A stretch of 41,787 nt of DNA from Kiritimatiellia bacterium (lineage in GTDB: Bacteria > Verrucomicrobiota > Kiritimatiellia > RFP12 > UBA1067), in NCBI GenBank assembly GCA_017463935.1, contig JAFUEM010000024.1, positions 1-41,787 on the forward strand, in the 5' to 3' direction. This document shows, one piece after another, positions 4,347-29,676 of this stretch. Position 1 is the stretch's first letter, and each line of letters opens with the position of its first letter. Position numbers and translations under genes: made by a program. A model generated the notes under the pieces. It searched no databases, had not been told where the DNA came from, and was given only the letters and a program-made list of their open reading frames with translations.

Positions 4347-4556
4347 ATGAAACCTTTCATTGAATCGCAGAGCGACGAGATCGCGGCGAACTTTCTCGCG
4401 CTCAAGGCGCGCGACCGGTACGCGATCGACATGGCCGCGTCGGTCAACATCGGCGACAAGCCGCGCGACCTGGAGGCGGGCGAGCGCGCCGGTGTCGGCA
4501 CGAACATTCTCTTCACGGGCGGCGGTCCGGCCGCGGGAGAAGGGGGCCAGTCATGA
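4347..4556 (+). pseudogene. Chimeric gene stub: nucleotidyltransferase (MNT)-like head plus GmhB/HAD phosphatase C-terminus
   Basis: GGAGG RBS, then MKPFIESQSDEIAA followed by YAIDMAASVNIGDKPRDLEAGERAGVGTNILF (HAD motif IV GDxxxD only). Stop overlaps the next ATG. Confidence 0.6.
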
Positions 4557-5944
4557 GCGCGGCAACGAAAAAGCATTCGCTGACGCCGGGCCGGTTCCGC
4601 GTGCTGGCGCTGATGGCGGTCGATCTGCTGTGCCTGCTGGTCGTCTGGTATCTGCTCGTCAACCTCTACCGGGCGTTCGGCTTCGGGCAGTACCACACGC
4701 GCGACTACTGGCATCTCTGGCCCATCGCGTTCATGTATCTGAGCGTGAATGTCGCCACCCGGCTGTACCACGGCAACATCCTCTACCCGGCCATGCCGCT
4801 GTCGCCGGTCGAGGAGTTCCGGCGTCTCTTCGCCTCCTCGCTCTTCGCGCATCTGCTCCTGCTGGCGATGCTGGGGTTTCTGCGGACGAATCTGGAGTAT
4901 TCGCGCTTCATCATCGTGGCGGCGGGCGTGATTGTCGGCCTGCTGGCCCAGCTGTCGCGCAATCTGCTGCGGAGCGCCCTGTTCAGGCTGCGGATCTGCC
5001 AGATCCCGGTGGCGCTCGCCGGCGGCGGCAAGACGGCCCAGCGGGTCGAGGCCATCCTGCGGAACAACGCCTACGTCGGGTTCGACGTGGTGCTGCGGTT
5101 CGACGACGCGCATCTGCGCGACATCGTCGGCGAGTCGCGCCGGCATGACGTGAAGATCCTGCTGGCCTGCCAGGACGAGCGCTTCTTCCGCGCGCAGCTC
5201 CGGGAGTTCACCGAATGGTTCAGCTACATGGAATATCTGCCGCGTGCGGAAGTGTTCCCCGTCTTCGGCGCGCATGCGGTGCTGATCGACGGCATCGGCG
5301 GCCTGGAGATGATGAACCAGCGGCGCATGAAGGCGCTCCGGTGGGAGAAGAACGTCCTCGACTTTCTGCTGGCGCTGGCCGGGGTCTGCCTGACGCTGCC
5401 GTTCTTCGCGGTCATTCCGGTCCTGATCAAGCTGACGAGCCCGGGGCCGGTCCTCTATCGCGCCCGGCGGCTGGGCAAGAGCGGGCGGGAGTTTGACTGC
5501 CTGAAATTCCGCTCGATGTACGCAGACGCCGACCGGCGGCTCGAGGAGGTGCTCGCGCGCGACCCGGCGCGGGCGGCCGAGTTCGCGGCGAACTTCAAGC
5601 TGAAGGACGATCCGCGCGTGACGCGCTTCGGCCGGTTCCTGCGCAAGACGTCGCTGGACGAGCTGCCGCAGCTGTTCAACGTGATGCGCGGCGAGATGGC
5701 GTTCATCGGGCCGCGCCCCATCGTCGCGAAGGAGATTCCGTTCTACGGCAGCGACTACGAGGTTCTCCGGACGGTGCGGCCGGGCATCACGGGGCTGTGG
5801 CAGTGCTCGGGGCGCTCCGACGTCGGGTACGAGCGGCGGGTCGCGCTGGACACCTACTACATCCTGAACTGGTCGCCGTGGATGGACATCTGGATCTTCA
5901 TCAAGACGATCGGCGCGGTTCTGTCCATGCGCGGGGCGGTGTAG
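4553..5944 (+). CDS. Initiating undecaprenyl-phosphate sugar-1-phosphate transferase (WbaP/WcaJ family)
   Basis: N-terminal TMs plus Bac_transf domain: KFRSM, DDPRVTRFGRFLRKTSLDELPQL, GPRP, PGITGLWQ. Confidence 0.93.
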   Translation: MSAATKKHSLTPGRFRVLALMAVDLLCLLVVWYLLVNLYRAFGFGQYHTRDYWHLWPIAFMYLSVNVATRLYHGNILYPAMPLSPVEEFRRLFASSLFAHLLLLAMLGFLRTNLEYSRFIIVAAGVIVGLLAQLSRNLLRSALFRLRICQIPVALAGGGKTAQRVEAILRNNAYVGFDVVLRFDDAHLRDIVGESRRHDVKILLACQDERFFRAQLREFTEWFSYMEYLPRAEVFPVFGAHAVLIDGIGGLEMMNQRRMKALRWEKNVLDFLLALAGVCLTLPFFAVIPVLIKLTSPGPVLYRARRLGKSGREFDCLKFRSMYADADRRLEEVLARDPARAAEFAANFKLKDDPRVTRFGRFLRKTSLDELPQLFNVMRGEMAFIGPRPIVAKEIPFYGSDYEVLRTVRPGITGLWQCSGRSDVGYERRVALDTYYILNWSPWMDIWIFIKTIGAVLSMRGAV

Positions 5945-5970
5945 GGAAGCAACACGGGACGGGCATTATT

Positions 5971-5979
5971 TGATATACT
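5971..5979 (+). promoter_or_regulatory. Extended -10 (TGaTATACT), likely leaderless promoter of wzm
   Basis: TATACT at 5974-5979, 7 nt before GTG 5987, no SD sequence. Confidence 0.55.
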
Positions 5980-5986
5980 ATCTCGT

Positions 5987-6754
5987 GTGATTGATCAATT
6001 GAAAAAATATCAGTTCCTGTTCGAGGAGCTCGTCAAGCGCGACTTCAAGAAGAAGTACAAGCGCACGGTGCTCGGCATGGGGTGGAGCATCCTGTCGCCG
6101 CTGCTGGTGCTGCTGGTGATGAAAATCATCTTCACCCAGTTTTTCGGCCGGACGATGACGCATTACACGACCTATCTCTTCTGCGGACTCCTGACCTTCA
6201 ACTGGTTTTCGGAGTCCACCAACCTCGGCATGCGCTGCCTGTATGCGAATGCCGCCGTCTTCACGAAGATCAACGTGCCGAAGTACCTCTTCCTGCTGGC
6301 GAGCAACGTGCAGACGCTGATCAACTTCGCGCTGACGCTTCTGGTGTTCTTCCTCTTCTGCGCGATCGACCGTATCGCCTTTACCTGGCGGTTCGTCCTG
6401 CTGATCTATCCCATCTTGACGCTGCTCGTGTTCAATATCGGCATGGGGCTCGTGCTGTCGGCGCTCTTCATGTTCTTCCGCGACGTCGACTATCTCTGGC
6501 GCGTCTTTCTCCGGCTCCTGATGTACGGCTCGGCCATCTTCTACACGATCGACCAGTTTTCCGCGCGGCTGAAGCTGGCGTTCGCCTGCAATCCCGTTTA
6601 TCGCCACATCGCCTACTTCCGCGAGGTCGTGATCGACGGTACCGTGCCGTCGCTTCCGGCGCATCTCGTGCTCGCGGGATTTGCGCTGGCGGCCTTCGCC
6701 GTTGGTGCGTTCATGTACAAGCATTACAACACGAAGTTCCTGTATTATGTCTAA
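5987..6754 (+). CDS. wzm: ABC-2 polysaccharide exporter permease
   Basis: ELVKRDFKKKYKRTVLGMGWSILSPLL, six TMs, FRDVDYL, NPV motif. Confidence 0.92.
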   Translation: MIDQLKKYQFLFEELVKRDFKKKYKRTVLGMGWSILSPLLVLLVMKIIFTQFFGRTMTHYTTYLFCGLLTFNWFSESTNLGMRCLYANAAVFTKINVPKYLFLLASNVQTLINFALTLLVFFLFCAIDRIAFTWRFVLLIYPILTLLVFNIGMGLVLSALFMFFRDVDYLWRVFLRLLMYGSAIFYTIDQFSARLKLAFACNPVYRHIAYFREVVIDGTVPSLPAHLVLAGFALAAFAVGAFMYKHYNTKFLYYV

Positions 6755-7709
6755 ACCGAAGGTGATGCTCGCGTGCCAGGACGTCTCCATTCGCTACATG
6801 GTTGGGGACTTCAAGGCGATCGGCCTCAAGGAATGGGTGATGCGCCGCCTGACCGGCAACTACAAGGTCGTCGACTTCTGGGCCGACCGCCATGTCAGCT
6901 TCAAGCTCCGGCAGGGCGACATGCTCGGCATCATCGGCACGAACGGCGCAGGGAAGTCGACGCTTCTGAAGGCCATCTCCGGCATCATGGAGCCGACGAA
7001 GGGGCGCATCGTCCGGCGCGGGAATGTGTCGGCGCTGCTGGAGCTCGCCAGCGGCTTCGACGGCGACCTGACGGTGAAGGAGAACGCCTACCTGCGCGGC
7101 GCGATGCTCGGCTACACGCGCGCGTTCATGGACGAGACCTATCCTTACATCATCGATTTTTCGGAGCTGAAGGCGTTCGAAGACAGCCCGTTCAAGCAGC
7201 TGTCGTCGGGCATGAAGTCGCGCCTCGCCTTTGCCATCGCCTCGCTCGTCAAGCCCGAAATCCTGATTCTCGACGAGGTGCTGTCCGTCGGAGACGGCGC
7301 GTTCAAGGCGAAGAGCGAGGCGAAGATGCGCGAGATCATCACGGGCGGCGCGACGACCATTCTCGTCTCGCATTCCATCGCGCAGGTGCGCAAGATGTGC
7401 AACAAGATCCTCTGGCTCGACAAGGGGCGGCAGATTGCGTTCACGGACGACGTGGAAGGCGCCTGCGACTGCTATGAAGCGTTCCTGCGCGCGCCGGCCG
7501 GAACGGAGCCGAAATTCGATCCTGACAAGATCGCGGCGAAGCGCGCGGCGGCGAAGGCCGAGGCGGAACGGCAGGCCGCGGAGCGCCGCCGCCAGGAAGA
7601 AGAGCGCCGCCGCAAGGCGGCCGAAGCCGCTACGGAACTCGCGCGTCTGCGCGCCGAAGCCGCGAAACTCGAAAAGGTCCGCCGCATCCTGAAAGGAAGC
7701 GGGAAGTAA
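6747..7709 (+). CDS. wzt: ABC polysaccharide exporter ATP-binding protein with charged helical C-tail
   Basis: Walker A GTNGAGKST, signature LSSGMKSRL, Walker B ILILDE, VSH. ATG 6747 overlaps the wzm end. Confidence 0.93.
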   Translation: MSKPKVMLACQDVSIRYMVGDFKAIGLKEWVMRRLTGNYKVVDFWADRHVSFKLRQGDMLGIIGTNGAGKSTLLKAISGIMEPTKGRIVRRGNVSALLELASGFDGDLTVKENAYLRGAMLGYTRAFMDETYPYIIDFSELKAFEDSPFKQLSSGMKSRLAFAIASLVKPEILILDEVLSVGDGAFKAKSEAKMREIITGGATTILVSHSIAQVRKMCNKILWLDKGRQIAFTDDVEGACDCYEAFLRAPAGTEPKFDPDKIAAKRAAAKAEAERQAAERRRQEEERRRKAAEAATELARLRAEAAKLEKVRRILKGSGK

Positions 7710-7839
7710 TGAAGATTCCGAAGACAGAATCGAAGACTGTCGAGTTCAAAACCGCGTTCAGGCAGGAGGCGATTGCGTCTCAGGCGGCCTTTCTCAAATC
7801 GAAACACTCAAGACAAAAGAAAAGGAGCGGCAGCAATGA
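7709..7839 (+). pseudogene. Gene stub: AlbA_2/Schlafen-like DNA-binding protein head plus unrelated gene tail
   Basis: TAATG-coupled MKIPKTESKTVEFKTAFRQEAI (ExxxVEFK motif). A different frame ends ...ETLKTKEKERQQ* with an ATGA overlap onto the next gene. Confidence 0.5.
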
Positions 7840-8591
7840 TAACAGTCGGAATCATCGGATGCGGATTTGTCGGCGGCGCGCTGAAGGCGTGGCTGGAGGA
7901 GAACAACAAGGACGTCAAGATCGTCGTCAGCGATCCGCCCAAGGGCATGAATGACGACATTTCGGGCGCGGATGTCTACTTCCTCCAGATCCACGTGCCG
8001 ACGGAAGATGACGGCACGCAGGACCTGACGCTCATGAAGCAGCTCATCACGGCGCTGCCCGACAAGCCCGTCTTCGTGCGCACGACGATCCTGCCGGGGA
8101 CGAGCGAGATGCTGTCGAAGGAGACGGGCCACCGCGTCTACTACATGCCGGAGTTCCTGACCGAGCGCACGTACATCGAGGACTTCAAGCGCCAGCCGAT
8201 GGTGTTCACGGGCGAGGTGGAGCTCCTCTCGAAGATCTTCAAGGGCAAGACGTTCACGACGATGAGCCCGCTCGAGGCGGAGATCACCAAGTATTCGCAC
8301 AACGTCTTCGGCGCGTACAAGGTGACGTACTTCAACGCCGTCTACGACTACTGCAAAAGGATGGGGGCGGACTGGGCGCGCGTACACGCGGGGATGCTCC
8401 TGTCGGGCTACATCAACGACACCCACACCTATGTGCCGGGTCCCGACGGCCGCTTCGGCTACGGCGGCAAGTGCTTCCCGAAGGACGTCAACGCCTTTAC
8501 GATCCTGACGCAGGGCACGCCCCTCGGCACGCTTCTGACGCCGCTTCATGCGCTGAATGTCCACTTCAGGGGGCATGAGGAGCGGATCTGA
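7836..8591 (+). CDS. Short UDP-glucose/GDP-mannose dehydrogenase family protein
   Basis: GIIGCGFVG Rossmann motif, VPT, PEFL, AEITKY, catalytic GYGGKCFPKD. No C-terminal UDP-binding domain. AAGGAG RBS. Confidence 0.85.
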   Translation: MITVGIIGCGFVGGALKAWLEENNKDVKIVVSDPPKGMNDDISGADVYFLQIHVPTEDDGTQDLTLMKQLITALPDKPVFVRTTILPGTSEMLSKETGHRVYYMPEFLTERTYIEDFKRQPMVFTGEVELLSKIFKGKTFTTMSPLEAEITKYSHNVFGAYKVTYFNAVYDYCKRMGADWARVHAGMLLSGYINDTHTYVPGPDGRFGYGGKCFPKDVNAFTILTQGTPLGTLLTPLHALNVHFRGHEERI

Positions 8592-8592
8592 T

Positions 8593-8640
8593 GCCGTTGG
8601 CAAGGTGTTGCGGCTTTTCGGCGCGAAGTGCAGGTGGTGA
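8593..8640 (+). repeat. Orphan copy of the glycosyltransferase 3'-tail repeat (AVGKVLRLFGAKCRW*)
   Basis: 44/48 nt identical to 28381-28428. Confidence 0.9.
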
Positions 8641-8666
8641 CGGCACATTCTGAAATATGCTATAAT
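8637..8666 (+). promoter_or_regulatory. Sigma70-type promoter with extended -10 (TGCTATAAT), leaderless, of AAA gene 1
   Basis: TATAAT at 8661-8666, 7 nt before ATG 8674. 8638-8666 is 25/29 identical to 28566-28594. Confidence 0.75.
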
Positions 8667-8673: not shown

Positions 8674-10263
8674 ATGGAGAAGGTGGCGACAGACATCTAT
8701 TCGTTCGCGGAGCTGCGGAACGAGGGTTTCACATACGTCGACAAGACGCATGAACTTTACGCGATGGCGTCGGGAGACGTCGGCAAGCAGTTCTTCATCG
8801 CGCGTCCGCGTCGCTTCGGCAAGTCGCTCGCCGTCTCGACGCTGAAGGCGCTGTTCGAGGGGCGTCGCGAACTTTTCAAGGGTCTCGCCATCGAGCCCCT
8901 CTGGGACTGGTCGAAAAGGTGGCCCGTGCTGCATCTCGACATGGGGTCGATGCAGGCGCGAGACGTCGACGAGTTCAGAGAGCTGCTTGTCAGACAGCTG
9001 GAGAGAAGGGCGTCCGAGTTCGGCATTGAATGTCCGAAAGCGGACATCCCGTCGGAAATGTTCACGTCACTCATCGACGCGCTTGCCGCGAAGTCGCCGG
9101 ACGGACGGATGGTGCTTCTGGTGGACGAGTACGACAAGCCGCTTCTGGGGCATCTGATGAAGCCGGACGTGACGGATTTCCGTGACGAGCTGAAGGCGTT
9201 CTACTCCGTCATCAAGACTCTCGAGGCAAGGCAGCGCTTCACGTTCATCACGGGCGTGAGCAAGTTCTCGAAGGTGTCGATATTCTCCGATCTGAACAAC
9301 CTCAACGACTGGACGATGGATGCGACCGTCGCCACGCTCTTCGGCTATACGCACGAGGATGTCCTGAAGTATTTCCAGGGGCGCATACACGCGCTCGCCG
9401 AGGCGCACGGCCTTGCCGACGAGGAGGCGTTTGCGGAGATTGTCAAGTGGTATGACGGCTACAAGTTCCACCCGGCGGCACAGCCAGTCATCAACCCCGT
9501 CTCGCTCGGGCTCTGCTTTCAGAAGAACGACTTCGCCAACTACTGGTCGCAGACCGCGCTGCCGACGTTTCTGGTCGATATCCTGCGCAAGAAGCCGCTC
9601 GATTTCTCGTCCATCGACATATCCGAGTCGGAGCTCGGGAACTACGAGCCGACCAACCCGCGCGACACCACGCTCCTCTACCAGACCGGCTACCTGACGA
9701 TTTCCGGCTTTCGGAACATCGGCGGCTCGCGCCTCTATTCGCTCGACTTCCCGAACCGCGAAGTGCGCGAGTCGTTTCTGCACGATCTCGCGCCCGTGTA
9801 TTCCGGGCTTCGCGAGGACATTGCGGGCTCCGCGCAGATTGCGGCCATTACCGCGCTTTACGACCATGACGTGCCGAAGTTCCTGAAGGCGCTCAGAACG
9901 TTCTTTTCCAACATCCCGTACAGCCTCACGGACCGCCAGAACGAGCAGATGTGGCAGACGGTCGTGTACGTGATCCTGCGGCTCATCGGCGTGAGCGCCG
10001 AGGGCGAGGTGCAGACGAACGAAGGGCGCATCGACCTTGTCGCGAAGACGCCGGGCGACATCTACATCGTCGAATTCAAGCTGGACCGCCCGGCCGCCGA
10101 GGCGATGGAGCAGATCAAGGGCAGGGACTATGCCGGAAAATATGCCCTCGACGGTCGGCGCGTCACGCTTGTCGGCATTTCGTTCTCGTCGGAGAAGCGC
10201 ACCATCGTCGAGGAACTCGTCGAGGAGTTTCCGCAGGGCGGCAAGGTCAGAGGTGGGATGTGA
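8674..10263 (+). CDS. AAA-ATPase-like + PD-(D/E)XK nuclease (PDDEXK_9) protein, copy 1
   Basis: YVDKT, RPRRFGKS, LLVDEYDKP, FITGVSKF, WYDGY, LYQTGYLTI, FPNREV, GRIDL..YIVEFK. Confidence 0.92.
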   Translation: MEKVATDIYSFAELRNEGFTYVDKTHELYAMASGDVGKQFFIARPRRFGKSLAVSTLKALFEGRRELFKGLAIEPLWDWSKRWPVLHLDMGSMQARDVDEFRELLVRQLERRASEFGIECPKADIPSEMFTSLIDALAAKSPDGRMVLLVDEYDKPLLGHLMKPDVTDFRDELKAFYSVIKTLEARQRFTFITGVSKFSKVSIFSDLNNLNDWTMDATVATLFGYTHEDVLKYFQGRIHALAEAHGLADEEAFAEIVKWYDGYKFHPAAQPVINPVSLGLCFQKNDFANYWSQTALPTFLVDILRKKPLDFSSIDISESELGNYEPTNPRDTTLLYQTGYLTISGFRNIGGSRLYSLDFPNREVRESFLHDLAPVYSGLREDIAGSAQIAAITALYDHDVPKFLKALRTFFSNIPYSLTDRQNEQMWQTVVYVILRLIGVSAEGEVQTNEGRIDLVAKTPGDIYIVEFKLDRPAAEAMEQIKGRDYAGKYALDGRRVTLVGISFSSEKRTIVEELVEEFPQGGKVRGGM

Positions 10264-10373
10264 AGCGTGTGTGTATTCGGTCTTCGTCCGCGTCAGCGAA
10301 CTCGGGAATCGTCGAGAGCTGCGGCGGCAAGAAAACCGGCGGATGCTGCCGGAAGGAGGGCGAGGAACGATGA
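10260..10373 (+). other. 37-codon mini-ORF/stub coupled at both ends
   Basis: GTGA overlap with the AAA stop and ATGA overlap with ATG 10370. Reads VKRVCIRSS...KEGEER*. Confidence 0.4.
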
Positions 10374-13300
10374 AGAAAGCCGTGCCAGAAGACATGAAGG
10401 ATGCTCACGGCCTCTCGATAGATGTCTCCGTAGTCGTCCCGACCCATCGCCGTCATCAGTTTCTGAAGGATGCGCTTCAAAGCGTGTTCAAGCAGAAAGG
10501 CGTCGGTTTTGAGGTGATAGTCGTAAACGGCGTCGAGGACGACACGGATACGGATGCAGTCGTATCCGAATTCGACGTTGTCAAATACATACGGTCGAAA
10601 GAATATCTGTCCTGCAGTTCGAAGCGGGCCTTGGGGCTGTCGCTTGCAAAAGGCAGATACATCCATTTCATCGATGACGACGACTACATGATCGATGACG
10701 ATTTCTACAGGAAGGCCGTCGCCTTGCTGGATTCCAACGGCGAAATATCGTCGTTCTCCGGCAACTCCAGATTCCGGTTCGAAAGCACGGAAGGCGGAGA
10801 GCCGAAGTACAGCGATGCCGCGCCGCTGCCTTCGGGGCGCATCAACGGGCTTGAATACTTCAAAGTGCCAGCTGGAATGGGGCAAGCCCGACTTGATGGC
10901 GACGGTATTCCGCAAAGCGGCTCTTGTCGCCGACGATACCCTGCGGGAAGTCAACGATTCTTCGATCTATCTTCAATCCCTGCTGCACGGCGACGCATTC
11001 ATAATCGAAGATCGCGTTTGCGTTTACCGCAAGTGGGGCGGCTCCATCAGCCATGGTGGCGAAGGGAACGACTTGCGGCTGAAGATGGATACGGCCATTC
11101 AGAAAGAGCGCTTCTACCGTATCGTCGCCGGCAAAATCGCCGATGCCGGCAAGTGGTGGCGCGGAACGTTCGCCATGAACCTCAACTATTTCAGGCGTTC
11201 GACGCCCGATGTGCTGGAAATGGTGCTGTTCGCGGCGTGGGGCGTGCTCCATTCCCATGGAGATGGAGAGCTCGCGACCGAGTGCGCTGCGGCACTTGCC
11301 GCGATGCGGCCCGGAGCATTCGCGGGCCTGCCCAGCATGTCAAGTCGCCCCAGGATGTTGCTGCATCTCAGAGCGGCGCTTCACAAAATATTCCTCGGCG
11401 CCGCTGGAAACTATGAACCATATTATTCGCAGTTGATGGCGGACTTGGATGCCGAAATACGAAGAAACGGCCAAGTTTCCGATTTGGGCTTGGCGTATTT
11501 CACCGGCTTCCGCAATTTCGGCGATTTGCTCGGGTGCAGCCTTGTTGAATATCTTTGCGGCCTGCACATGTGCAACCAACCGCTTGGCGCGGCAGACATC
11601 GTGTCGGTCGGCTCGCTGCTTCAGGGTCTGTCCTGCCGCTTTGCCCAAGCGCAGGCGACCGCCGCCCCGCTTCACGTCTGGGGAAGCGGATTCCTCCATC
11701 CCGTCGAGCTTGGCAGGCCGCCTGTCAAGGGACGCGTGGTGTTTCACGCGGTCCGCGGGCGGAATACGCTCGCGCAGCTCCGGGAAACGGGACTCGTCGA
11801 TCCGGGCGAAGCTGTCGCCCTGGGCGACCCCGGCCTTTTTTACGCAGATCTGGTGCCAGGCGTCGAAAAGACGAAGAAAGAGTTCGACGTCGCCATCGTG
11901 CCGCACCATCTGGACAGCGAAGAGTTCAAAGCCGTCGCCGACGAACTGGCTTCGCAGGGTCTATCCGTAAAGTTCGTCGATGTCCGTCACGCCAACCCTA
12001 TGCAAGTCGTGCGCGACATCGCGGCATCGCGCAAGGTGCTGTCCTCTTCACTGCATGGAATCATCGTAGCCGACTCGCTCGGCATACCAAACGGGCGCAT
12101 TGTCGTGGATGGCTTTGAAACCGACGAAGAGAGGATGCGCAACGAAAGCGACTACAAATTTTCCGATTACTATTCCGCATTCGGCTTGGAGTGCCCAGAA
12201 CACATCAGCCTTTCAGAGTTGAAGCGCTCTCCCCGCAAGACCATTGAAAGCATGGTCGATTTCGTTCCGCAGGAAAAAGTGGAGGAGTGCAAGCGCAATT
12301 TGCTGGCCGCGTTTCCGTTCCCGAGGCGCGCGTCCGCCGCCGCCTTTCAAGATGTGCCGCAGTCGCCGGGCGTATCCGTAGTCGTCCCGATATGCAACAG
12401 CGAATACTATCTCCGGGAATGCTTGGATAGCGTGCTTTCCCAGGAGGAGTTCGCTTCGTTTGAATTGATATGCGTCGATGACGGCTCGACCGATTCTTCG
12501 GCCGCAATCGTGGAAGCCTACGCCGCAAGCGACCGCCGCGTCAGATTGCTCAGGCAAAAAAACGCCGGTCCCGGCGTCGCGCGCAATGCAGGGCTCGACG
12601 CCGCGCGCGGAGAATACATCTTCTTCCTCGACGCGGACGACCGCCTCTCCTGCGGCGAGGCGCTTCGCGAGGCGTACGAACAGGCGAAGGCGGACGACCT
12701 CGACGTCCTGCTCGCCGACGCCAACGACATGTCGGAAATCGGCAACGTGACGCGCAGCAACAAATATCTCTTGCGCGACCTACTTCCGGCTGCGCGCGTA
12801 TTCCCGCCGGAATCGCTAGGTGCAAATCTTTATATTGCGGCGACAATGTCGCCTTGGGCAAAACTGTTCCGGCGGCAATTCCTTGAAAAGAACGCGCTCA
12901 GGTTTCCGGCGCTCAAGCGGTCGGAGGATTTCCCGTTTGTACAGTTGGCAATGTCGCTCGCGCGTCGTATCGGCGCGTTGATCCGTACGGCGGTCGATCA
13001 CCGAATCGGCGTGGCGACGTCGCTGGAATCTACCAAGGACGAGACCCCGCTCGCATTCGCCGAGGCCGAACGGATATTTAGGGATTCCCTGTCCGAACAC
13101 GGCCTGCTGGACAAGTTCAGGGAGTCGGACAATGTCGCGCATGCTATCTATATTGCGTACAACCTGCACAGATTACGGCGTTTTTCTGATTTCAGGGCAG
13201 TTGCACAATATTGCGCGAAGGTATTCCCAGGTCTCAAGTTGAAAGGCGATGAAGCAAGTATATCTGCTTTTTCATATACGCATAAGCGCCTTGCGAATAT

Positions 13301-21512: not shown

Positions 21513-21521
21513 GTATGGACG

Positions 21522-21578
21522 GGAGGGTCACGCTTGTCGTGACCTTTTTCCTGCGGTCGCGACAAACGCGCCCCTTCC
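21522..21578. repeat. REP-like palindrome doublet in inverted orientation; first copy also terminator-like
   Basis: GGAGGGTCACG-cttgt-CGTGACC (21522-21544, then TTTTT) and an inverted degenerate copy ggtcgcgacaaacgcgccccttcc (21555-21578). Confidence 0.7.
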
Positions 21579-21608
21579 GCTGTCGACCTGCCACTAACCA
21601 CTTAAAAA

Positions 21609-21617
21609 TGCTATAAT
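21609..21617 (+). promoter_or_regulatory. Extended -10 (TGCTATAAT), leaderless promoter of AAA gene 2
   Basis: TATAAT at 21612-21617, 7 nt before ATG 21625. Confidence 0.75.
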
Positions 21618-21624
21618 ATACGCC

Positions 21625-23217
21625 ATGGAGAAGTTGGCGACAGACATCTATTCGTTCGAGCGGCTTCGCGAGAGCGGTTTTACGTACGTTGACAAGACGC
21701 GCGAACTCTACGCGATGGCGTCGGGTGACGTAGGCGTACAGTTTTTCATCGCGCGTCCGCGGCGCTTCGGCAAATCGCTCGCCGTATCGACGTTGAAGGC
21801 GCTTTTCGAAGGGCGGCGCGAACTTTTCAAGGGCCTGGCGATCGAGCCGCTCTGGGATTGGTCGAAGAAATGGCCTGTGCTGCATCTCGACATGGGGACG
21901 ATGCAGTATGATACCGTAGAAGAATTAGACCAGTCCTTGAGAGATTATTTTTGCCTAATGGCATCGGAGGTGGGTGTTTCGCTCGACCGGACGAAATTGA
22001 TGCCCGACATGTTTCGCGATATGATACGCGAGTTGGCGGCGAAATCCTTCGACGGTCGATGCGTAGTCCTGATCGATGAATACGACAAGCCGCTCTTGAA
22101 AGCGCTCGATACCACAGATGTCTGCAAATTCCGAGACTACCTGAAACCATTCTACGGCGTTGTGAAATACGAGGGTGAGAAACAGCGCTTCACGTTTATC
22201 ACGGGCGTGAGCAAGTTTTCGAAGGTGTCGATATTTTCGGATTTGAACAATCTGAAGGACTGGACGATGTACGCGAGCGTCGCGACGCTTTTCGGCTACA
22301 CGCACGAGGAAGTGCGCAAGTATTTCCCTGGACGCATACATACGCTCGCCGAGGCGAACTCGCTCACGGACGAAGAGGCGTTCGCCGAAATAATCAAGTG
22401 GTACGACGGCTATAAGTTCCATCCTTCTGCCAAACCTGTCATCAATCCGGTTTCGCTCGGACTTTGTTTCGAAAACAACGATTTCGCCAACTACTGGTCG
22501 AAGACGGCGGTGCCTACGTTTTTGATCGCCATCCTCGCGAAGCATCCACTCGATTTTTCGAGCGTGAACGTGAGCGACGACCGCCTGGAGGCGTACGAGC
22601 CGGAGAACCCCGACGTCACGACGCTTCTCTACCAGACAGGCTATTTGACGATCAAGGCTGCGCACCGCCTGAACGACATGACGGTTTACGACCTCGGCTT
22701 CCCGAACAGGGAAGTTGCAAACTCGTTCACTTCGAGACTTGCGCCGGCATATGTCGATATGGAGCCGCCATCCGCAGAGTCTGCGCAGATAGCGGCAGCA
22801 CGTGCGCTGTTGGCGCACGACGTCGCGAAGTTCATAAAGGCGCTCAAGACGTTTTTCGCGAATATTCCGTACGACCTGACGGACAGGCAGAACGAGCAGA
22901 CGTGGCAGGCGATCGTGTATGTGGTGCTGAAGGCCGTCGGCGTGGGCGTGCAGTCGGAAGTGAAGACGAACGACGGGCGCATCGACATGGTGGTCGATCT
23001 CCCCGGCGACATCTACATCGTCGAATTCAAGCTCGACAAGCCTGCGTCAGAGGCGATCGAGCAGATCAAGGGCAGGGACTACGCCGGGAAGTACGCGCTT
23101 TCCGGCAAGCGCGTCACGCTGATCGGCATCTCCTTCTCGTCTGAAAAGCGCACCATCGTCGAGGAACTCGTCGAGGAGTTTCCGCAGGGCGACAAGGTCA
23201 GAGGTGGTGAGGCGTGA
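21625..23217 (+). CDS. AAA-ATPase-like + PD-(D/E)XK nuclease protein, copy 2
   Basis: Same motifs as 8674..10263 and clearly paralogous, 12,951 bp apart. Confidence 0.92.
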   Translation: MEKLATDIYSFERLRESGFTYVDKTRELYAMASGDVGVQFFIARPRRFGKSLAVSTLKALFEGRRELFKGLAIEPLWDWSKKWPVLHLDMGTMQYDTVEELDQSLRDYFCLMASEVGVSLDRTKLMPDMFRDMIRELAAKSFDGRCVVLIDEYDKPLLKALDTTDVCKFRDYLKPFYGVVKYEGEKQRFTFITGVSKFSKVSIFSDLNNLKDWTMYASVATLFGYTHEEVRKYFPGRIHTLAEANSLTDEEAFAEIIKWYDGYKFHPSAKPVINPVSLGLCFENNDFANYWSKTAVPTFLIAILAKHPLDFSSVNVSDDRLEAYEPENPDVTTLLYQTGYLTIKAAHRLNDMTVYDLGFPNREVANSFTSRLAPAYVDMEPPSAESAQIAAARALLAHDVAKFIKALKTFFANIPYDLTDRQNEQTWQAIVYVVLKAVGVGVQSEVKTNDGRIDMVVDLPGDIYIVEFKLDKPASEAIEQIKGRDYAGKYALSGKRVTLIGISFSSEKRTIVEELVEEFPQGDKVRGGEA

Positions 23218-25520
23218 AAGATATTGCGCGACCAGACATCAAACCGGCATTTGCCGAGCGGAACATTCCCGTTGCGCTGGCGACGGACGAGAATTATCTG
23301 CCGTATCTCAAAGTCACGATAAACTCGGCGATTGCCAGCTCTCCCGGAAGCAATCTGGACATCATCGTCCTGCACGCGGGCATCCCGGAAGATGCAATTC
23401 TGGATTTCACCGCCAGATACGCGGGAACCGGCAATGCGTCCGTGAGATTCGTAGATATTTCGGAGGAACTGGAAACGTCCGGGCTTTCGGACTACAAACA
23501 GACGGCCAGGCTGCCGCTGTCGTCGTGCTATCGCCTGCTGCTCCCCCGCATCCTTCCCGCATACGGCAAGATCGTGTATATAGACGTGGACGTCGCCGTG
23601 TGCCGCGACCTCGGCGAGCTGTATGCGACGGACGTTGGCGACAACTGGTTTGCGGCCGCGAAAGACGTAGTCTACACCACAAAGCCCGAATATGTTTCCT
23701 GGGCGGGGAAGTGGGGATTCACGGAATGGGACGGCTACGTCAACACCGGCGTCCTGGTCATGAATCTGGAGCGTTTCCGCCGCGAACCGGTCTTTGACAG
23801 ACTCAAGGAGATCGTTTTCGAAGCGGCTAAATGGAACTGCGCCCAGGACGCCCTGAACTTCGTCTGCAAAGGGGCGATCGCGCCGCTCGATCCGCGCTGG
23901 AACGTGCAGCTCGGCGACTACTGCATCTCGAAGCAAATCGCCTTGACCGGTGAAGAGATGTGGATCGCGCATTTTACAGGAGGAGAAAAGCCTTGGAAAT
24001 ATCCGGTGCATCGTTATTCACACCTCTGGTGGCGACATGTCGATTGTTCCGACGGCTTTTCTGTCGTATTGTGGCGGAGCGCGTTTGATGTTGCCGATAC
24101 AGTCGTCAGCCAGGGTGAAGGAATAGCCGTTTCTGTAATCGTTCCGGTTTACAACGCCGAAACATATCTCGTCCAAATGCTTGTCTCGCTGGCGGCGCAG
24201 ACGCTTCGCAACATTGAAGTGATTTGCGTCGACGATGGATCAACCGATGGTTCTTGCGCGATATGCGAAAGATTCGCGGCGGCGGACGCTCGGTTCAAGA
24301 TTTTGCATCAGACGAATTCCGGGGCCGCCGTTGCACGCAATAGAGGCATTGGCGAGGCTCGGGGAAGATGGCTCTTCTTTGCGGACGCCGATGACTTCTG
24401 CCGTCCAGACATGCTGGCAGACATGGTTGCCGAGGGCAAGGCCAGGAACGCCGATATTGTCGTAGCGGGGAGCTTTCGCTTTGATGCCCGCCAGATTGGC
24501 GAGTGCTGCAAGGTCTGCATTCCTGCAAAGTATGTCGAAAAAGAGCAGCCGGTGTCTTGCCATACCGATGGCGTGAATGTCTTCTCTGGCCTTGGCTTCG
24601 CTCCGTGGAACAAGCTGTACAAATCAGATTTTGTCCATGCCTGCGGCATCCGCTATCACCAGACTCCGCCCAACGACGACGTATTCTTCGTGCTGGCGAC
24701 ACTGATTCTCGCCCGGCGAATTGCCCTGATGTGCAAAGAGTATTATTATTACAGGGCGTTTCTTGAGACAAGCCAGATGGGGCAGGCTGACAAACACCCT
24801 GCGAACTTCCTGGCGTCGCTTCTCGAAGTGCGTGACATTGTCGCCACGCAAAAAGCTATTATTCAACAGGATTTCTTCGTCGTGGCCGTCAAATCCTGCT
24901 TCGATAACCTCATGATGCGAAAGACACATGAAGGAATCGTAAATACATACGCCGCAATCCGGGACGGAGGGTTGGAGGCATTAAGGCTTCCTTTCGCGGA
25001 TGAGACATGCGCGGATATCGGGATATGTCGTAAAGCATTCGCCCTCACTCTTGCGAAAGCGGATGTCCTTATTGTGCTTTCAACATACTGCCGCGAACAG
25101 CATCTTTCCGAGTTGTCCTCTCTACTCACGAGAGATGTGGCTCTCCTCAAGCTTAAGGGGTGGCTGGCGGAGAAAACGGCACAATACGAAGCGGCTGACA
25201 GCCGAATCAAGGTTCTCCGCGAGCAGTCTGCCAATGCCGGCAAACAGGCAATTGCGCGGAATGAGGCGCATAAGCGCGATGTCGAGCGCCTGAAGACGGA
25301 TGTGCTCAAGTTGAGGGGATGGCTGGCGGAGAAGACGGAACAATACAAGGCGGCTGACAGCAAAATCAAGGCTCTCAACGAGCTGCATTCCAAAATGCTT
25401 GCCCAGAAGGAAGCATATAGGCGTGACGTCGACAACCTGAAAGGCCGGATAGCCGCGCTGGACTCCGCGTTAGCGAAAAGCAACCGAATAATTGCAGAGA
25501 TTTCTAAATCAATTGGATAA
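23214..25520 (+). CDS. GT8 + GT2 fusion glycosyltransferase with coiled-coil C-terminus
   Basis: TDENY, YIDVDV, VNTGVLVMN, AQDALN, HFTGGEKPW, then VIVPVYN, VDDGSTD, FADADD. A 53-aa duplication lies at 25146/25305. GTGA-coupled to AAA gene 2. Confidence 0.9.
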   Translation: MKDIARPDIKPAFAERNIPVALATDENYLPYLKVTINSAIASSPGSNLDIIVLHAGIPEDAILDFTARYAGTGNASVRFVDISEELETSGLSDYKQTARLPLSSCYRLLLPRILPAYGKIVYIDVDVAVCRDLGELYATDVGDNWFAAAKDVVYTTKPEYVSWAGKWGFTEWDGYVNTGVLVMNLERFRREPVFDRLKEIVFEAAKWNCAQDALNFVCKGAIAPLDPRWNVQLGDYCISKQIALTGEEMWIAHFTGGEKPWKYPVHRYSHLWWRHVDCSDGFSVVLWRSAFDVADTVVSQGEGIAVSVIVPVYNAETYLVQMLVSLAAQTLRNIEVICVDDGSTDGSCAICERFAAADARFKILHQTNSGAAVARNRGIGEARGRWLFFADADDFCRPDMLADMVAEGKARNADIVVAGSFRFDARQIGECCKVCIPAKYVEKEQPVSCHTDGVNVFSGLGFAPWNKLYKSDFVHACGIRYHQTPPNDDVFFVLATLILARRIALMCKEYYYYRAFLETSQMGQADKHPANFLASLLEVRDIVATQKAIIQQDFFVVAVKSCFDNLMMRKTHEGIVNTYAAIRDGGLEALRLPFADETCADIGICRKAFALTLAKADVLIVLSTYCREQHLSELSSLLTRDVALLKLKGWLAEKTAQYEAADSRIKVLREQSANAGKQAIARNEAHKRDVERLKTDVLKLRGWLAEKTEQYKAADSKIKALNELHSKMLAQKEAYRRDVDNLKGRIAALDSALAKSNRIIAEISKSIG

Positions 25521-25530
25521 AAGGGCGACA

Positions 25531-25697
25531 ATGCTTTTTACATCTCTAGAGTTCCTGTTTTTGTTCCTGCCGGTATGTCTGGCGTAGCGGCCTATTACCT
25601 TATTGAACTTCCCGGCGCCAAGCTTCTTGGGGCGATTTACGGTATGCTGAATATTGATGGAAATACAAAAAAGGAAAAAAAGGAAGATGCACGGTAA
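25531..25697 (+). pseudogene. Stub: MBOAT (AlgI/DltB-like) head plus acyltransferase-3-like tail
   Basis: MLFTSLEFLFLFLPVCLA* (25531-25587). Another frame reads VAAYYLIELPGAKLLG...EDAR* and overlaps ATG 25687. Confidence 0.6.
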
Positions 25698-28428
25698 TCC
25701 TACATCTACGGAGGATTCCTCTCCACTGGTATCAGTAGTGCTTCCGGTGTTCAATGTGGAGCACTACATCGTCGAATGCCTTGATTCGATAGCGGCGCAG
25801 GATTATCCGAATTTCGAGGTCATCGCGGTCGACGACGGCTCTAGCGACGGGTCGCTGCGGCTGCTGGAAGAGTATGCCTCTTCGCACAGCGCAATGGCAG
25901 TCCTTCACCAGGAAAACTCTGGTGCCGGCGTTGCGCGCAACAAGGGCATTGCGGCAGCGAAGGGCAAGTACGTGCTGTTTGTGGATCCCGACGACGCAAT
26001 CGAACCTTGCGCACTTCGCGAACTGGTGGAAGTGGCGGAGTCCAAGTCGGCGGAGATAGTGCTGTTCAGCGCCGCGCGCTATGATGCCGAACTGAAGACT
26101 CTGGTAACGCTGGCGCACCAGCCTAGACAAGCGATCGACCTCCCGGAGGTGTTTGCGGGCAGTGACATGGCGTCGAATATCTATACAACATTTTCTGATG
26201 GACCGGCTCCGTGGAATAAGCTATTTCTCCGGCAGTTTATAACCAACCATGGATTATCCTTCCAGTCGCTGCCACGCGTAAACGACCTAAGCTTCTCGTA
26301 TTCCGCCCTAGCCTTGGCGAAGCGTATCTGCGTTATTGACAAGGCATACTATAGATATCGGACAAACCGCAAAGGGAGTTCCCAGAATACAACCGACCGC
26401 GATCCATCCCCCGTTTGTGCCGCATACCGCCGCCTCAAGGAAACGCTTTCTGGCAAGTGCGTGTTCGCTGATTTTTCAGACAGCTTCTACAAGGCGTTCT
26501 ACAGCTCCTGCTCGTACACGTTTCGCCAAATGAAGCATCTGACAACGGCAAGGCGGCTGTTCGATTTGCTTCATTCCGAGTCGATGGCCTCCATCGCTGG
26601 TGCAAAGCTCGGCCGAGACGCATTCGCGACCGACAAGGAGTTTGCCGCATACGCGGGCTTTTGGGAAGAACGATCGCCCTATCGTCTGATGCTGACCCCA
26701 AGACAACGCAATTTCGCCGACGATATGCCGGCCTTGCCGAAGAGCGGCAATGGCAAGGTGTTGGGCATAATGTGCGGGTCCTTGCGCCCTGGTGGCATTG
26801 AGCGCGCCGTGACACATCTAGTGCCGATGTTCGTTAGAAACGGATTTGACGTCGTGATCATGACTTCGGCTCCGCCGACTGACATGGAGTATGTGCTTCC
26901 CGACGGTTGCATAAGGTTGACGATTGGCCGCGATTCCGAAGACAATTCCCGGTACGATCGCATAAGAGCTGCAATACTCAAGTACGGCATCGGTATTGTA
27001 ATTGCCCACGAATACTACATGTTGACCATCGGCAAGGACATAACCGCAATACACTCTGCCGGAGCATATGCCGTCGTGCATCACCACAGCGTTTTCTCGA
27101 ACATGTACGTGAGGGATAACCGCGAACGCTCTCTTCCGCAACTGCTCAGGGCATACAGGACGGCGGACGCAATGGTGACGCTTTCCGATATCGACGCGGA
27201 TTTTTTTGGCATGATGGGCTGCAAGACCCTCAGAATTACGGATCCCGTGCCGGACATTCCTCATCCGAAGTCAAAGGCATCTTCCGGGCACACCGTGATA
27301 TGGGCGGCGCGGTTTGTGGACGGCAAACGCCCATTGGATGCCGTCAGGATATTCGAGCTTGTGCTCCAGCAGGTTGCGGACGCAAAACTGGTGATGCTGG
27401 GCGATGGACATGCGGAGCAAAAAAAGCTTGTGGATGATTATCTTTCCACCCGCCCGGATCTCAGCAGGGCGGTTGAGAGAAAAGGCCATCAACCTGATGT
27501 TTTCGCTTTCGAGCGGGAGGCAGATGTCTTCCTTACGACAACCAAGTTTGACGGATTCTCGCTCTCGGTGGTAGAGGCCAAGGCAATGGGCCTGCCGGTC
27601 GTCACGTATTCCATGCCATATCTTGAGACGGTGAAGCCTGGGACTGGCGTACTGTCGGTTCCCCAGGGCGATGTGGCTGCGGCTGCCGACGCCATCGTGC
27701 GGATTTTCAACGACGAAGCGCTACGAGCGAGGTTGTCTGGCGAGTCGAGGGCATCATACGAGCATTTCGCGGCGTTCGACCAGTGGGCGGCGTATTCGCA
27801 GCTGTTCGGCGCACTCAGCGGAACAAGTGTGCTCCCCGAACGAGATGTCAAATGCGAATCGGCTACGATTATCGTAAATACTCTCATAGAGCATGTTGAC
27901 TTGGCCATGGGGCGCGTCCTGGAAAAATCCGCCAAGATGGCATCCCCGAATCTATGGTGCAAAAAAGACGAAAGAAATCCGAAGACAGCAGAAAAGAGAA
28001 TAAAGAGTCCTAAAGTTTCGATCATCGTGCCTGTGTACAATGCGGCACCCTATCTGTTGGAATGTCTGGATTCACTGGTCGACCAACTTGACGGCAATGT
28101 CGAGGTAATCTGCATCGATGATGGATCGACGGATGATTCCGCGCGCATCATCGCAGCGTATGCGGAGAAGCGGACGAATGTGCGGCTTCTCCAGCAGGCG
28201 AGAGCGGAAGTTTCGGCGAGAGCCGCGCAGAAGAAGATCGACGCGCTCCGCAGAGAGATATCAAGGCTGCGCAATTCCGAGTCGTATCGCGTCGGGATGG
28301 TTGTCACGTGGCCGGCGCGGAAGGCGTGGGGAGGCGTGAAATGCCTGCGCGAGAACGGCGTCAAGTACACCGTCAAGCACGCCGTTGGCAAGGTGTTGCG
28401 GCTTTTTGGCTCGACGTGCAAGTGGTGA
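25687..28428 (+). CDS. GT2 + GT4 fusion plus truncated second GT2 and tail module
   Basis: GT2 (VVLPVFN, VDDGSSD, FVDPDD), GT-B (GGIERA, KFDGFSLSVVEAKAMGLPVV), then a GT2 fragment cut after VRLLQQ and joined to the NSESYRVG..TWPARK tail. Confidence 0.87.
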   Translation: MHGNPTSTEDSSPLVSVVLPVFNVEHYIVECLDSIAAQDYPNFEVIAVDDGSSDGSLRLLEEYASSHSAMAVLHQENSGAGVARNKGIAAAKGKYVLFVDPDDAIEPCALRELVEVAESKSAEIVLFSAARYDAELKTLVTLAHQPRQAIDLPEVFAGSDMASNIYTTFSDGPAPWNKLFLRQFITNHGLSFQSLPRVNDLSFSYSALALAKRICVIDKAYYRYRTNRKGSSQNTTDRDPSPVCAAYRRLKETLSGKCVFADFSDSFYKAFYSSCSYTFRQMKHLTTARRLFDLLHSESMASIAGAKLGRDAFATDKEFAAYAGFWEERSPYRLMLTPRQRNFADDMPALPKSGNGKVLGIMCGSLRPGGIERAVTHLVPMFVRNGFDVVIMTSAPPTDMEYVLPDGCIRLTIGRDSEDNSRYDRIRAAILKYGIGIVIAHEYYMLTIGKDITAIHSAGAYAVVHHHSVFSNMYVRDNRERSLPQLLRAYRTADAMVTLSDIDADFFGMMGCKTLRITDPVPDIPHPKSKASSGHTVIWAARFVDGKRPLDAVRIFELVLQQVADAKLVMLGDGHAEQKKLVDDYLSTRPDLSRAVERKGHQPDVFAFEREADVFLTTTKFDGFSLSVVEAKAMGLPVVTYSMPYLETVKPGTGVLSVPQGDVAAAADAIVRIFNDEALRARLSGESRASYEHFAAFDQWAAYSQLFGALSGTSVLPERDVKCESATIIVNTLIEHVDLAMGRVLEKSAKMASPNLWCKKDERNPKTAEKRIKSPKVSIIVPVYNAAPYLLECLDSLVDQLDGNVEVICIDDGSTDDSARIIAAYAEKRTNVRLLQQARAEVSARAAQKKIDALRREISRLRNSESYRVGMVVTWPARKAWGGVKCLRENGVKYTVKHAVGKVLRLFGSTCKW
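28303..28428 (+). repeat. Full copy of the GT 3'-tail repeat
   Basis: Matches 29575-29665 (83/91 nt) and 8593-8640 (44/48). 28301-28322 matches 21441-21462 (22/22). Confidence 0.9.
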
Positions 28429-28482
28429 CGCCGAGCATAAAATGGGTGCGCCGTCTCAAATCAAGGCCGGCGAACTTTAGCT

Positions 28483-28563
28483 TTCGGGAATGAGATGCCT
28501 TAATTTTCGGGAGTGAAATGCTTTAATCTTCGGGAGTAGAAAGATTTATTTTTAGGGAATGCC
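28483..28563 (+). repeat. 3.5 imperfect 23-bp tandem repeats (TTCGGGARTG...TTAAT) upstream of a promoter
   Basis: Units start at 28483, 28506, 28529, 28552. Confidence 0.75.
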
Positions 28564-28564
28564 A

Positions 28565-28594
28565 TTGACGGCACATGGCGATATATGCTATAAT
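28565..28594 (+). promoter_or_regulatory. Sigma70 promoter TTGACG-N18-TATAAT with extended TG
   Basis: Near-consensus -35 and -10, followed by AAGGA and ATG 28629. Confidence 0.8.
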
Positions 28595-28628
28595 TACGCA
28601 CAATTTTTTGCAAAAAGGACTTATTGAG

Positions 28629-29554
28629 ATGAGGGCGGAATACAAGAAACGTGTTGTAGCAGGATGCGGATGCGTCCGATGAGCCTGTGGGAGTCGGGAG
28701 AATCGACCGGAGAAATTTCTCTTTCAGCGCTTTTTGATGGTGCTGGCGAGGTGTCGGGACGATCGTCAATTGGCGTTGATGAAATCGCCCATCTTGTCTG
28801 CCGTGGAGGATGGCCGCAAGCGGTGCTTGCCAAGACGCCTCGGGCGGCGTATATGAAGTCTTCCAGTTATGTCGATGAAGTCGTGCACGAAGACGTTCAC
28901 AGGGTTGATGGCGTTGAGCGCAATCCCGATCGTGTGAGGAATCTGCTGAAATCGCTGGCCAGAAACATCTCGACCATGGCTACAAATGAAACCATCTTGC
29001 AAGATTTAAAAGCCAACGATTCGTCCATCAGCGAAAAGACGCTTTCTTCATACTTGAACGCACTGCGAAAGATATTTCTGGTGGAAGATGTTCCAGCTTG
29101 GTCGCCGTCACTCAAGTCCAGGTTGGCGATTCGTTCGGCGATGAAACGGCAGTTTGTCGATCCTTCGGTCGCGACGGCCGTTTTGGGCGCGACGCCCAGG
29201 CGATTGCTGAATGACTTTCGCTCTTTCGGGTCTTTCTTCGAGTCGCTCTGCGTAAGAGATGTGCGCGTATACGCCCAGACGCTTGATGGCGAGGTGCGGC
29301 ACTATCGCGATCAGACCGGGCTTGAAGCCGATATGATTGTTGCATTGAAAGATGGGCGATGGGGTGCGGTCGAGGTAAAGCTGGGCGCAGGCGACATTGA
29401 CAGCGCGGCGGTGGGACTCAAGAAACTGAGTGCAAAGGTCGATGTCGGCAGGATGGGGCATCCTTCATTTCTCATGATATTGACCGGCACGGATCTTGGC
29501 TACACGCGGGACGATGGCGTTGTTGTCTGCCCGCTGGGTTGCTTGAGGCCATGA
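28629..29554 (+). pseudogene. AAA_14/DUF4143 ATP-binding protein with the P-loop domain internally deleted
   Basis: Head MRAEYKKRVV (28629) joined out of frame to RMRPMSLWESGES..GGWP..FVDPS..FESL..YRDQTGLEADMI..AVEVKLG. No Walker A/B. Confidence 0.8.
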
Positions 29555-29676
29555 AATATTCTGCGACATTCTCCGTCACGTGGCCGGTTCGGAAGGCGTG
29601 GGGCGGGATGAAATGCCTGCGCGAGAACGGCGTCAAGTACACCGTCAAGCACGTCGTCGGAAAGGAAGGGATATGA
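29551..29676 (+). pseudogene. 41-aa collapsed glycosyltransferase (head MKYSATFS plus tail repeat)
   Basis: In-frame MKYSATFS-VTWPVRKAWGGMKCLRENGVKYTVKHVVGKEGI*, with ATGA overlaps at both ends. Confidence 0.75.

Follow-up and report, generated by a model that had tools for sequence, protein, structure and literature searches.

The window analysed here is contig JAFUEM010000024.1 (41,787 nt) of the Kiritimatiellia metagenome-assembled genome (MAG) GCA_017463935.1, and it is a modular, horizontally mosaic cell-surface glycan locus in which short pieces of genes, here called stubs, lie among intact genes between positions 4347 and 29676. Quite probably these stubs are ordinary scars of recombination and deletion in a hypervariable glycan locus and not the products of a special mechanism. 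Parent genes and breakpoints could be located, deletions differ between strains, and the junctions display no preference for reading frame. A preliminary description of the stretch had listed eight such features, six stubs and two internal deletions, and seven of them are real relics with a parent; the stub at 10260-10373 has none. The head-and-tail structure that had been described as the rule applies to two of the six stubs only, those starting at 4347 and 25531, which combine the head of one gene with the tail of a different one.

The window is the whole of contig C44 of a fragmented MAG (354 contigs, 2.79 Mb, N50 11.8 kb, GC 62%, 85% complete). In the following, labels beginning with G (e.g., G017, G041, G066) denote genomes of the same genus, C232 and C177 are other contigs of the window's own MAG, X1 and X5-X7 are metagenome runs represented by Logan contigs, X1 being a possible source sample, and L063 is an independent metagenome contig. 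The DNA of the window is present in animal-gut metagenome runs, and related loci are found in uncultured Kiritimatiellae or "Verrucomicrobia" MAGs from the gut of cattle, goat and other ruminants. The + strand carries every large gene of the window as well as the following scars and reference features (GT, glycosyltransferase; ORF, open reading frame):

4315-4349, + strand: hldE relic comprising the final 11 codons and the stop codon, 98% identical to C232 1680-1714, with 11 of 11 residues matching in tblastn
4347-4410, + strand: gmhA head of about 22 codons (stub 1, 4347-4556, begins here); its parent, C232 1712-2275, exceeds the TIGR00441 cut-off (212 against 209.45 bits)
4401-4521, + strand: piece of a GmhB (HAD) domain, 40 codons, 97.5% identical to C232 2583-2703; the parent domain passes TIGR00213
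4522-4556, + strand: 5' region of the transferase gene, 35 nt, in another frame; the homology to C232 ends at 4521
7709-7801, + strand: head (31 codons) of an AlbA_2/HATPase_c_4/wHTH gene (stub 2), 63-68% identical to the starts of 393-486-aa ORFs in G062 and G036
8593-8640, + strand: final 15 codons and stop codon of the conserved GT tail, without a start codon (stub 3), 92% identical to 28381-28430
10260-10373, + strand: ORF of 37 codons (stub 4), with a GTGA overlap with a DUF1703 gene and an ATGA overlap with a GT2 gene
10860-10890, + strand: frameshift in the first GT2 domain of a GT2-pyruvyltransferase-GT2 gene, the GT2 homology lying in two frames
21423-21487, + strand: shortened tail ending a GT2 gene whose G066 orthologue has the full tail; a scar beyond those listed earlier
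25531-25584, + strand: MBOAT head, 18 codons (start of stub 5, 25531-25697), ending at TAG 25585-25587, 83-94% identical to the starts of 470-491-aa ORFs of the genus
25580-25697, + strand: 3'-terminal part of a membrane-protein gene, in a different frame from the head; one 77-aa fragment matches (81% over 26 aa, E 6.5e-4)
28003-28428, + strand: GT2 gene cut to about its first 69 codons plus coiled coil and tail, by comparison with a 701-aa protein of G017
28283-28430, + strand: full copy of the tail, the reference for the relics (similarity, alignment)
28629-29554, + strand: AAA_14/DUF4143 ATPase gene with a frameshifting deletion of 358 bp between 28659 and 28660, by comparison with G066
29551-29676, + strand: ORF of a tail piece, 36 codons (stub 6), with tail homology at 29575-29665 (91 nt) and ATGA overlaps on both sides

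The heptose genes that once preceded the sugar-phosphate transferase gene are represented by stub 1 and the hldE relic before it. Contig C232 carries genes for an HldE-like kinase/adenylyltransferase, for GmhA and for a GmhB-APH-GT2 fusion, and positions 4315-4413 of the window correspond to C232 1680-1778 (98% identity). The gmhA head and the gmhB piece are joined in frame at a 10-nt microhomology, CTCAAGGCGC, which is present in both parents. The stop codon of the hldE relic overlaps the gmhA ATG (ATGA) exactly as in the parent contig, and the TGA of the stub-1 ORF overlaps the transferase ATG at 4553. On its own, the stub-1 sequence gave weak HAD matches in Pfam. In G041 the GmhB-APH-GT2 fusion gene stands directly upstream of the orthologous transferase gene, i.e., in the ancestral position of the heptose genes, and we therefore take the heptose genes of the window to have eroded in place, through at least three separate junctions. 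The distance from the stop of the preceding GT8 gene to the hldE relic, which forms the left junction, is 17 nt. The HldE-like ORF of C232 (516-1712) matches the HldE model only from profile position 99 (343.9 bits against a cut-off of 521) and may be truncated or frameshifted at its 5' end.

The second head-and-tail junction is stub 5. One of the 470-491-aa ORFs matching its head was checked by Pfam and is an MBOAT protein. Head and tail overlap by 5 nt at 25580-25584, and a 13.8-kb contig of X5, from goat gut in another study, aligns to the window as far as 25584 and resumes at 25580, the approximately 3,930 letters in between being its own. The extra letters sit exactly at the junction, hence the X5 strain retains the deleted MBOAT region, and the deletion in the window is approximately 3,935 bp and out of frame. 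The tail had no match in the 117 genus genomes (best E 0.065) and a single one, the 77-aa fragment, in a set of 5.8 billion proteins; this fragment has no Pfam match. By resemblance, the parent of the tail may be an acyltransferase.

Both internal deletions that had been proposed, near 28197 and 28660, are real. The 701-aa protein of G017 has two GT2 domains and matches the window with 84% identity over its first 69 residues and again over the last 90 or so. Approximately 540 codons have thus been lost near 28197 with the frame kept, while the start codon of the remnant has been lost or replaced and the remnant fused to the upstream GT2-GT4 ORF. In G066 the AAA_14/DUF4143 gene is intact (427 aa), and the window is short of exactly 358 nt; apart from this gap the two are collinear through a full-tail GT2 gene, the DUF4143 gene and a tail relic. 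The DUF4143 segment (28283-29665 compared with G066:C62) is 95% identical in DNA and 98.6% in protein, the flanking GT genes being 71-83% identical, which suggests recent transfer of the segment between species. A 23-nt unit in 3.5 tandem copies (28482-28561) lies immediately upstream of the DUF4143 promoter-like site and could be a regulator-binding array. The frameshift near 10870 was missing from the earlier list; its sequence is identical in C177 and in a contig of X1. No close orthologue of the frameshifted GT2 gene was found in the genus (identity at most 39%), and its intact form was not recovered.

Stubs 3 and 6 are relics of one and the same element, a conserved GT tail. This 58-aa peptide (28252-28425) forms the C-terminus of GT ORFs 235-1034 aa long in 26 of the 116 other genus genomes and is also found in named Kiritimatiellae MAGs. 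It occurs four times in the window, with 90-92% DNA identity between copies and shared exact runs of 22-45 nt; the repeat is coding sequence, conserved as protein. Stub 3, which had been correctly described as a tail only, begins 1 nt past the ugd stop, and its end provides the -35 element of the next promoter-like site. In G017 and G008 approximately 5.5-6 kb of tail-ended GT genes follow ugd, of which the window retains only the last 15 codons. Stub 6 is likewise a tail piece, with overlaps on both sides, and no head could be identified in an own-genome search or in the tail alignment. It is collinear with G066 at 95% up to 29665, the G066 relic tail after the DUF4143 gene being longer. Because of this collinearity, stub 6 must predate the split or transfer between the species of the window and G066, and it is not a product of assembly.

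Stub 2 was rightly recognized as a gene head. Its homologue in G062 has AlbA_2, HATPase_c_4 and wHTH domains (Pfam), and its ATG overlaps the wzt stop (TAATG). It has no tail, however: the stop at 7839 that had been assigned to it belongs to a different frame, its ORF reads on out of frame past the ugd start (7836) and ends at 7954, and from approximately 7808 onwards the bases are those natively found upstream of ugd, a region that several genomes of the genus conserve. Alleles or orthologues that have the missing part at the same position were available for the DUF4143 gene, the MBOAT region, the heptose genes and the GT genes after ugd, but not for the AlbA_2 head. Stub 4 exists as an ORF with both of the overlaps described. 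No parent for it was found in the own genome (six frames), in the 117 genus genomes (DNA) or in Pfam and NCBIfam. Its DNA gave only chance-level matches of 21-53 nt in the genus, and inspection of G038:C30 revealed no parent. Comparison of the short stubs with Pfam and NCBIfam at E values up to 10 yielded nothing usable.

Several features of the data might lead one to regard the stubs as chimeric metagenome joins, made at repeats or between strains. The MAG is fragmented, the tail copies share exact runs, and C177 (5,430 bp) duplicates positions 10003-15432 of the window at 99.98% identity. This duplication points to bin redundancy or strain heterogeneity, and its end points match no stub. Independent assemblies speak strongly against false joins. 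Contigs of X1, built with another assembler, display no differences from the window over 9701-10224, 10211-13431, 13523-23175, 23162-28366 and 28352-29638, thereby bridging stub 4, the GT2 frameshift, stub 5, both internal deletions and the start of stub 6. Among runs of other studies, X7 has the deletion of stub 5, X6 that of the DUF4143 gene and X5, whose contig covers the site unbroken, that of the GT2 gene. Stub 6 is found in G066, and stub 2 in L063 as two pieces of 96.4% and 99.5% identity (the latter over 7617-8545). Between the pieces of stub 1 and C232 there is 2-3% divergence, and the junction homology of only 10 nt is, in our judgment, shorter than the usual word lengths of assemblers, which makes a false join at stub 1 unlikely. 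An assembly artefact is thus largely refuted, and we consider it most improbable as the source of the stubs. That large deletions or replacements have taken place within this operon-rich locus, as was initially claimed, is borne out by full-length parents in relatives and by the contigs of other assemblies, which span most of the junctions.

The same runs reveal that strains are polymorphic for the MBOAT and DUF4143 deletions. In X5 the MBOAT region and the DUF4143 gene are both intact, and in X7 the former is deleted and the latter intact: an 813-nt contig of this third study spans 25452-26264 with three differences and carries the MBOAT-deleted allele, and the 358 nt missing between 28659 and 28660 are present in X7 as in X5. 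A contig of X6 spans that junction without them; the X6 contigs end at 25471 and resume at 25581, and none spans the stub-5 junction. In the window and X1 both regions are deleted. Many bins of 9701-23000 have no cover in the X5-X7 runs, which says nothing either way.

Around the scars, the window contains the following genes and promoter-like sites:

4553-5944, + strand: sugar-phosphate transferase (PGT) gene, Pfam PF02397
5987-7709, + strand: ABC-2 permease and ABC ATPase genes (Wzm/Wzt-like), Pfam PF01061 and PF00005
7836-8591, + strand: gene for a short UDP-glucose-dehydrogenase-family protein (ugd), Pfam
8637-8666, + strand: promoter-like site of DUF1703 gene 1, 10 of 12, TG-extended (promoter scan)
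8674-10263, + strand: DUF1703 gene 1 (AAA-ATPase_like and PDDEXK_9, Pfam)
21588-21617, + strand: promoter-like site of DUF1703 gene 2 (promoter scan)
21625-23217, + strand: DUF1703 gene 2 (AAA-ATPase_like and PDDEXK_9, Pfam)
28565-28594, + strand: promoter-like site of the DUF4143 gene, TTGACG-18-TATAAT, the best in the window (promoter scan)

Permease, ATPase, initiating transferase and GTs are found by Pfam in one cluster, as in ABC-transporter-dependent (Wzm/Wzt) glycan loci. More than 12 GT2, GT8 and GT4 domains (PF00535, PF01501 and PF00534) are accompanied by pyruvyl transferase, GDSL-like, CotH, IspD-like and LicD proteins and by acyl decoration. The core order in the genus is heptose genes, transferase, wzm, wzt, (ugd), GT8-GT2, GT2, GDSL, tail-ended GT2, (DUF4143), tail relic and further GTs. 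The window has two GT modules in tandem, 10370-21487 and 23214-28430, both of them tail-ended. A DUF1703 gene stands before each module, and the DUF4143 gene and a third set of GTs come after. The GC content of blocks ranges from 0.47 to 0.69 across the window. The GT2 and GT8 genes at 2297-4297 have a GC content of 0.47-0.53 between blocks of 0.61-0.69 and were probably acquired from a donor of lower GC. The two DUF1703 genes are paralogues with 75% DNA identity from 24 nt upstream of the ATG through the stop. A TG-extended TATAAT ends 7-8 nt before each ATG, and given this spacing the mRNAs may be leaderless.

We suggest that modules of the locus are exchanged or duplicated via homologous sequence common to them, mainly the conserved 150-nt 3' tail on the last GT gene of each module. 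Shared tails and paralogous genes would provide the homology for unequal exchange, while RecA-independent illegitimate deletions at microhomologies of 0-10 nt would make the smaller scars, the stubs being leftovers of both processes. The microhomology amounts to 10 nt at the gmhA/gmhB junction and at most 2 nt at the DUF4143 deletion, and the 5-nt overlap at the MBOAT junction suggests a repeat; the other parents are not close enough for such an estimate. Classic lacI short-repeat deletions are illegitimate short-homology deletions, and the present scars resemble them in that the junction keeps a single copy of a short direct repeat (here 10 nt and 5 nt) and in that genes are eroded stepwise. 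They differ in being concentrated in one locus, with at least two segregating in natural populations. Some of the deletions would remove decoration functions such as the MBOAT O-acyl module, and their segregation among strains is what might be expected for surface-antigen variation or for neutral decay.

The start/stop overlaps at the scars are for the most part boundaries of the parents, and the rest would stem from breakpoints within a short boundary motif (stop TGA, start RTG, AAG). In G041 and G066 the junction of wzt with GT8-GT2 reads AAGTGAAGGAT, and in the window DUF1703 gene 2 is joined to the GT8-GT2 gene by GCGTGAAAGAT; DUF1703 gene 1 ends with ATGTGAAG, and wzt joins the AlbA_2 head as AAGTAATGAAGAT. 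All four boundary types read ...GTGAAG... or ...ATGAAG..., and the short motif they share would account for several junctions lying exactly on gene boundaries. A break repaired within it would keep the stop/start overlap without selection.

Alternatively, a dedicated system might shuffle cassettes and delete genes here, with the DUF1703, DUF4143 and AlbA_2 genes cutting or targeting the tail and so driving the exchange and deletion of modules. Each of the four orphan nucleoside triphosphatase (NTPase)/nuclease genes or relics is located exactly at a module boundary, a copy of the tail preceding three of them, DUF1703 carries a nuclease domain (PD-(D/E)XK), and the DUF4143 segment is far more similar between the window and G066 than its flanks are. 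On the other hand, the junctions have no motif in common, their microhomologies vary from 0 to 10 nt, the DUF4143 gene has itself been hit by a deletion, and in the two relatives inspected the surroundings of the DUF1703 homologues are unrelated and non-glycan and lack tails. For the loci of these two relatives, an association of DUF1703 genes with tails was rejected. Pfam scans of the window's large ORFs found no integrase or recombinase domain, and the locus does not class as integron-like or as a site-specific cassette array. We regard such a system as very improbable. The dedicated deletion or end-joining process that had been offered as one explanation of the stubs found no support either: Ku (PF02735) was found in none of the 117 genus genomes, 32 of them of high quality, with a positive Bacillus subtilis control and with LigD not searched for, and the microhomologies are short and varied.

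The other explanation offered at the outset, namely that deletions were selected to keep the ribosome relay of the operon intact, deserves to be weighed in its general form. Translational coupling and polarity are established in bacterial operons, and random deletions might persist only if ribosomes still reach the next start codon, in which case the stubs would be functional relay mini-ORFs. The stub-1 ORF has the native ribosome site of gmhA at its start and an ATGA on the new transferase start at its end, the native longer 5' end of the transferase gene seemingly having been lost. At stub 5, overlapping ORFs run from 25531 to 25587 and from 25575 to 25697, and the next ATG is at 25688. As to frame, two of the four gene-internal junctions with both frames known are in frame (gmhA/gmhB and the GT2 deletion) against one in three by chance, and two are out of frame (the 3,935-bp MBOAT and the 358-bp DUF4143 deletion). 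Seven gaps were also examined for a chain of ORFs that links the upstream stop to the downstream start without interruption, and each was compared with 1,000 shuffles of the gap bases. At a tolerance of 4 nt there is no enrichment, with two chains seen against 0.7-0.9 expected (p 0.14-0.20, uncorrected). Chains are present at stubs 4 and 6, and they also form there in 31-53% of shuffles (35-53% at stub 4) because the fixed flanks supply xTGA and ATGA. With a tolerance of 10 nt, chosen post hoc, four of the seven gaps are chained, the expectation being 1.2-1.7 (uncorrected p 0.007-0.046), and any enrichment thus varies with the parameters. No complete chain is present at stub 1, at stub 2 or in the DUF4143 gap.

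Nor does the locus behave as a single operon, since three strong promoter-like sites and a terminator-like hairpin occur at module boundaries, where a relay would not be needed. The hairpin, GC-rich and followed by T5 (21522-21550), lies just past the GT2 gene that ends the module 10370-21487; its folding energy is -24.1 kcal/mol with a weak z of -1.58, and the terminator scan did not list it. Overlaps of the ATGA/GTGA type are common between intact genes of the window, e.g., at 1487/1490, 15346/15349, 23214/23217 and 41081/41084, and the overlap at the 5' end of stub 1 is the native hldE/gmhA ATGA. The overlaps at the scars are thus mostly inherited from parental boundaries or supplied by fixed flanks, and the scars bear no sign of having been shaped for coupling. 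Selection for an intact relay was therefore not upheld as the explanation of the stubs, and we find survivorship under polarity unlikely as their general cause. Some selection against polarity at the scars could nevertheless have acted, and at stub 1 ribosomes may well reach the start of the transferase gene through the stub ORF, a plausible local effect. A combined scheme, in which the tail and the promoter-bearing orphan NTPase/nuclease genes would mark programmed exchange points of a module-shuffling system that diversifies the surface glycan of rumen Kiritimatiellae, selection meanwhile keeping ribosome traffic through the scars, appears to us distinctly improbable.

Ordinary recombination and deletion remain our preferred account of the scars, the mechanisms of recombination and any effect on fitness being what we infer. 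A number of points weigh against it. Chains are enriched at the 10-nt tolerance. Stubs 1 and 3 were seen in no independent assembly, and no match to the gmhA/gmhB junction was found when metagenome contigs were scanned for its exact pattern. C232, the parent contig of stub 1, may come from another strain in the bin rather than from the same cell. The parent of the stub-5 tail rests on one short fragment, and stub 4 lacks a parent altogether. Finally, the density of scars is high, with at least 12 junctions in 25 kb, a figure that has no calibration against other loci.

Length variation in the window is also found within genes. The C-termini of GT proteins contain internal repeats coding for coiled coils (13390-13810 and 25146-25383), and the length of the coil varies by strain, X5 and X6 having 12-nt insertions at 25390. 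The C-terminal coil of wzt (7570-7616) has a 47-nt difference in L063. A 1,624-aa protein (35255-40129) contains beta-helix/NosD repeats and seven Listeria-Bacteroides (Flg_new) repeats, and the DNA repeats at 37633-39310 within its gene are 75-83% identical.

Scars of this sort are a known kind of thing, present here at unusually high density. O-antigen clusters contain gene remnants, serial deletions and block junctions, e.g., the wzy remnants of Salmonella groups B1 and D1, as described in PMC3715488. As in those clusters, the window has non-functional pieces of sugar-pathway, transferase or processing genes inside a surface-polysaccharide locus, deletion states that vary by strain and junctions between blocks of differing ancestry. 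Compared with the Salmonella remnants covered there, the window belongs to an uncultured Kiritimatiellae bacterium, its scars are much denser and lack insertion sequence elements at the junctions, and a conserved GT tail recurs at its module ends. Deletional bias of bacterial pseudogenes is likewise established (PMC6054270). The DUF1703 family (PF09820 and PF08011) is of unknown function and expanded in some genomes, as stated in PMC6387759. The two full-length paralogues of the window share its AAA-ATPase_like and PDDEXK_9 architecture; in the window they lie between glycan modules, each having a strong promoter-like site. A literature search, with supplementary files outside its scope, found nothing on this locus or genus.

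The locus reveals no new mechanism. It exemplifies, with well-documented parents and population polymorphism, the build-up and erosion of a surface-glycan locus in an uncultured rumen lineage, and it illustrates that seemingly "designed" start/stop overlaps in scars can be inherited or due to chance. The losses of the O-acyl module, of a GT2 domain and of heptose genes are real loss-of-function variants between strains, and they may alter the cell surface met by phages and by the host.

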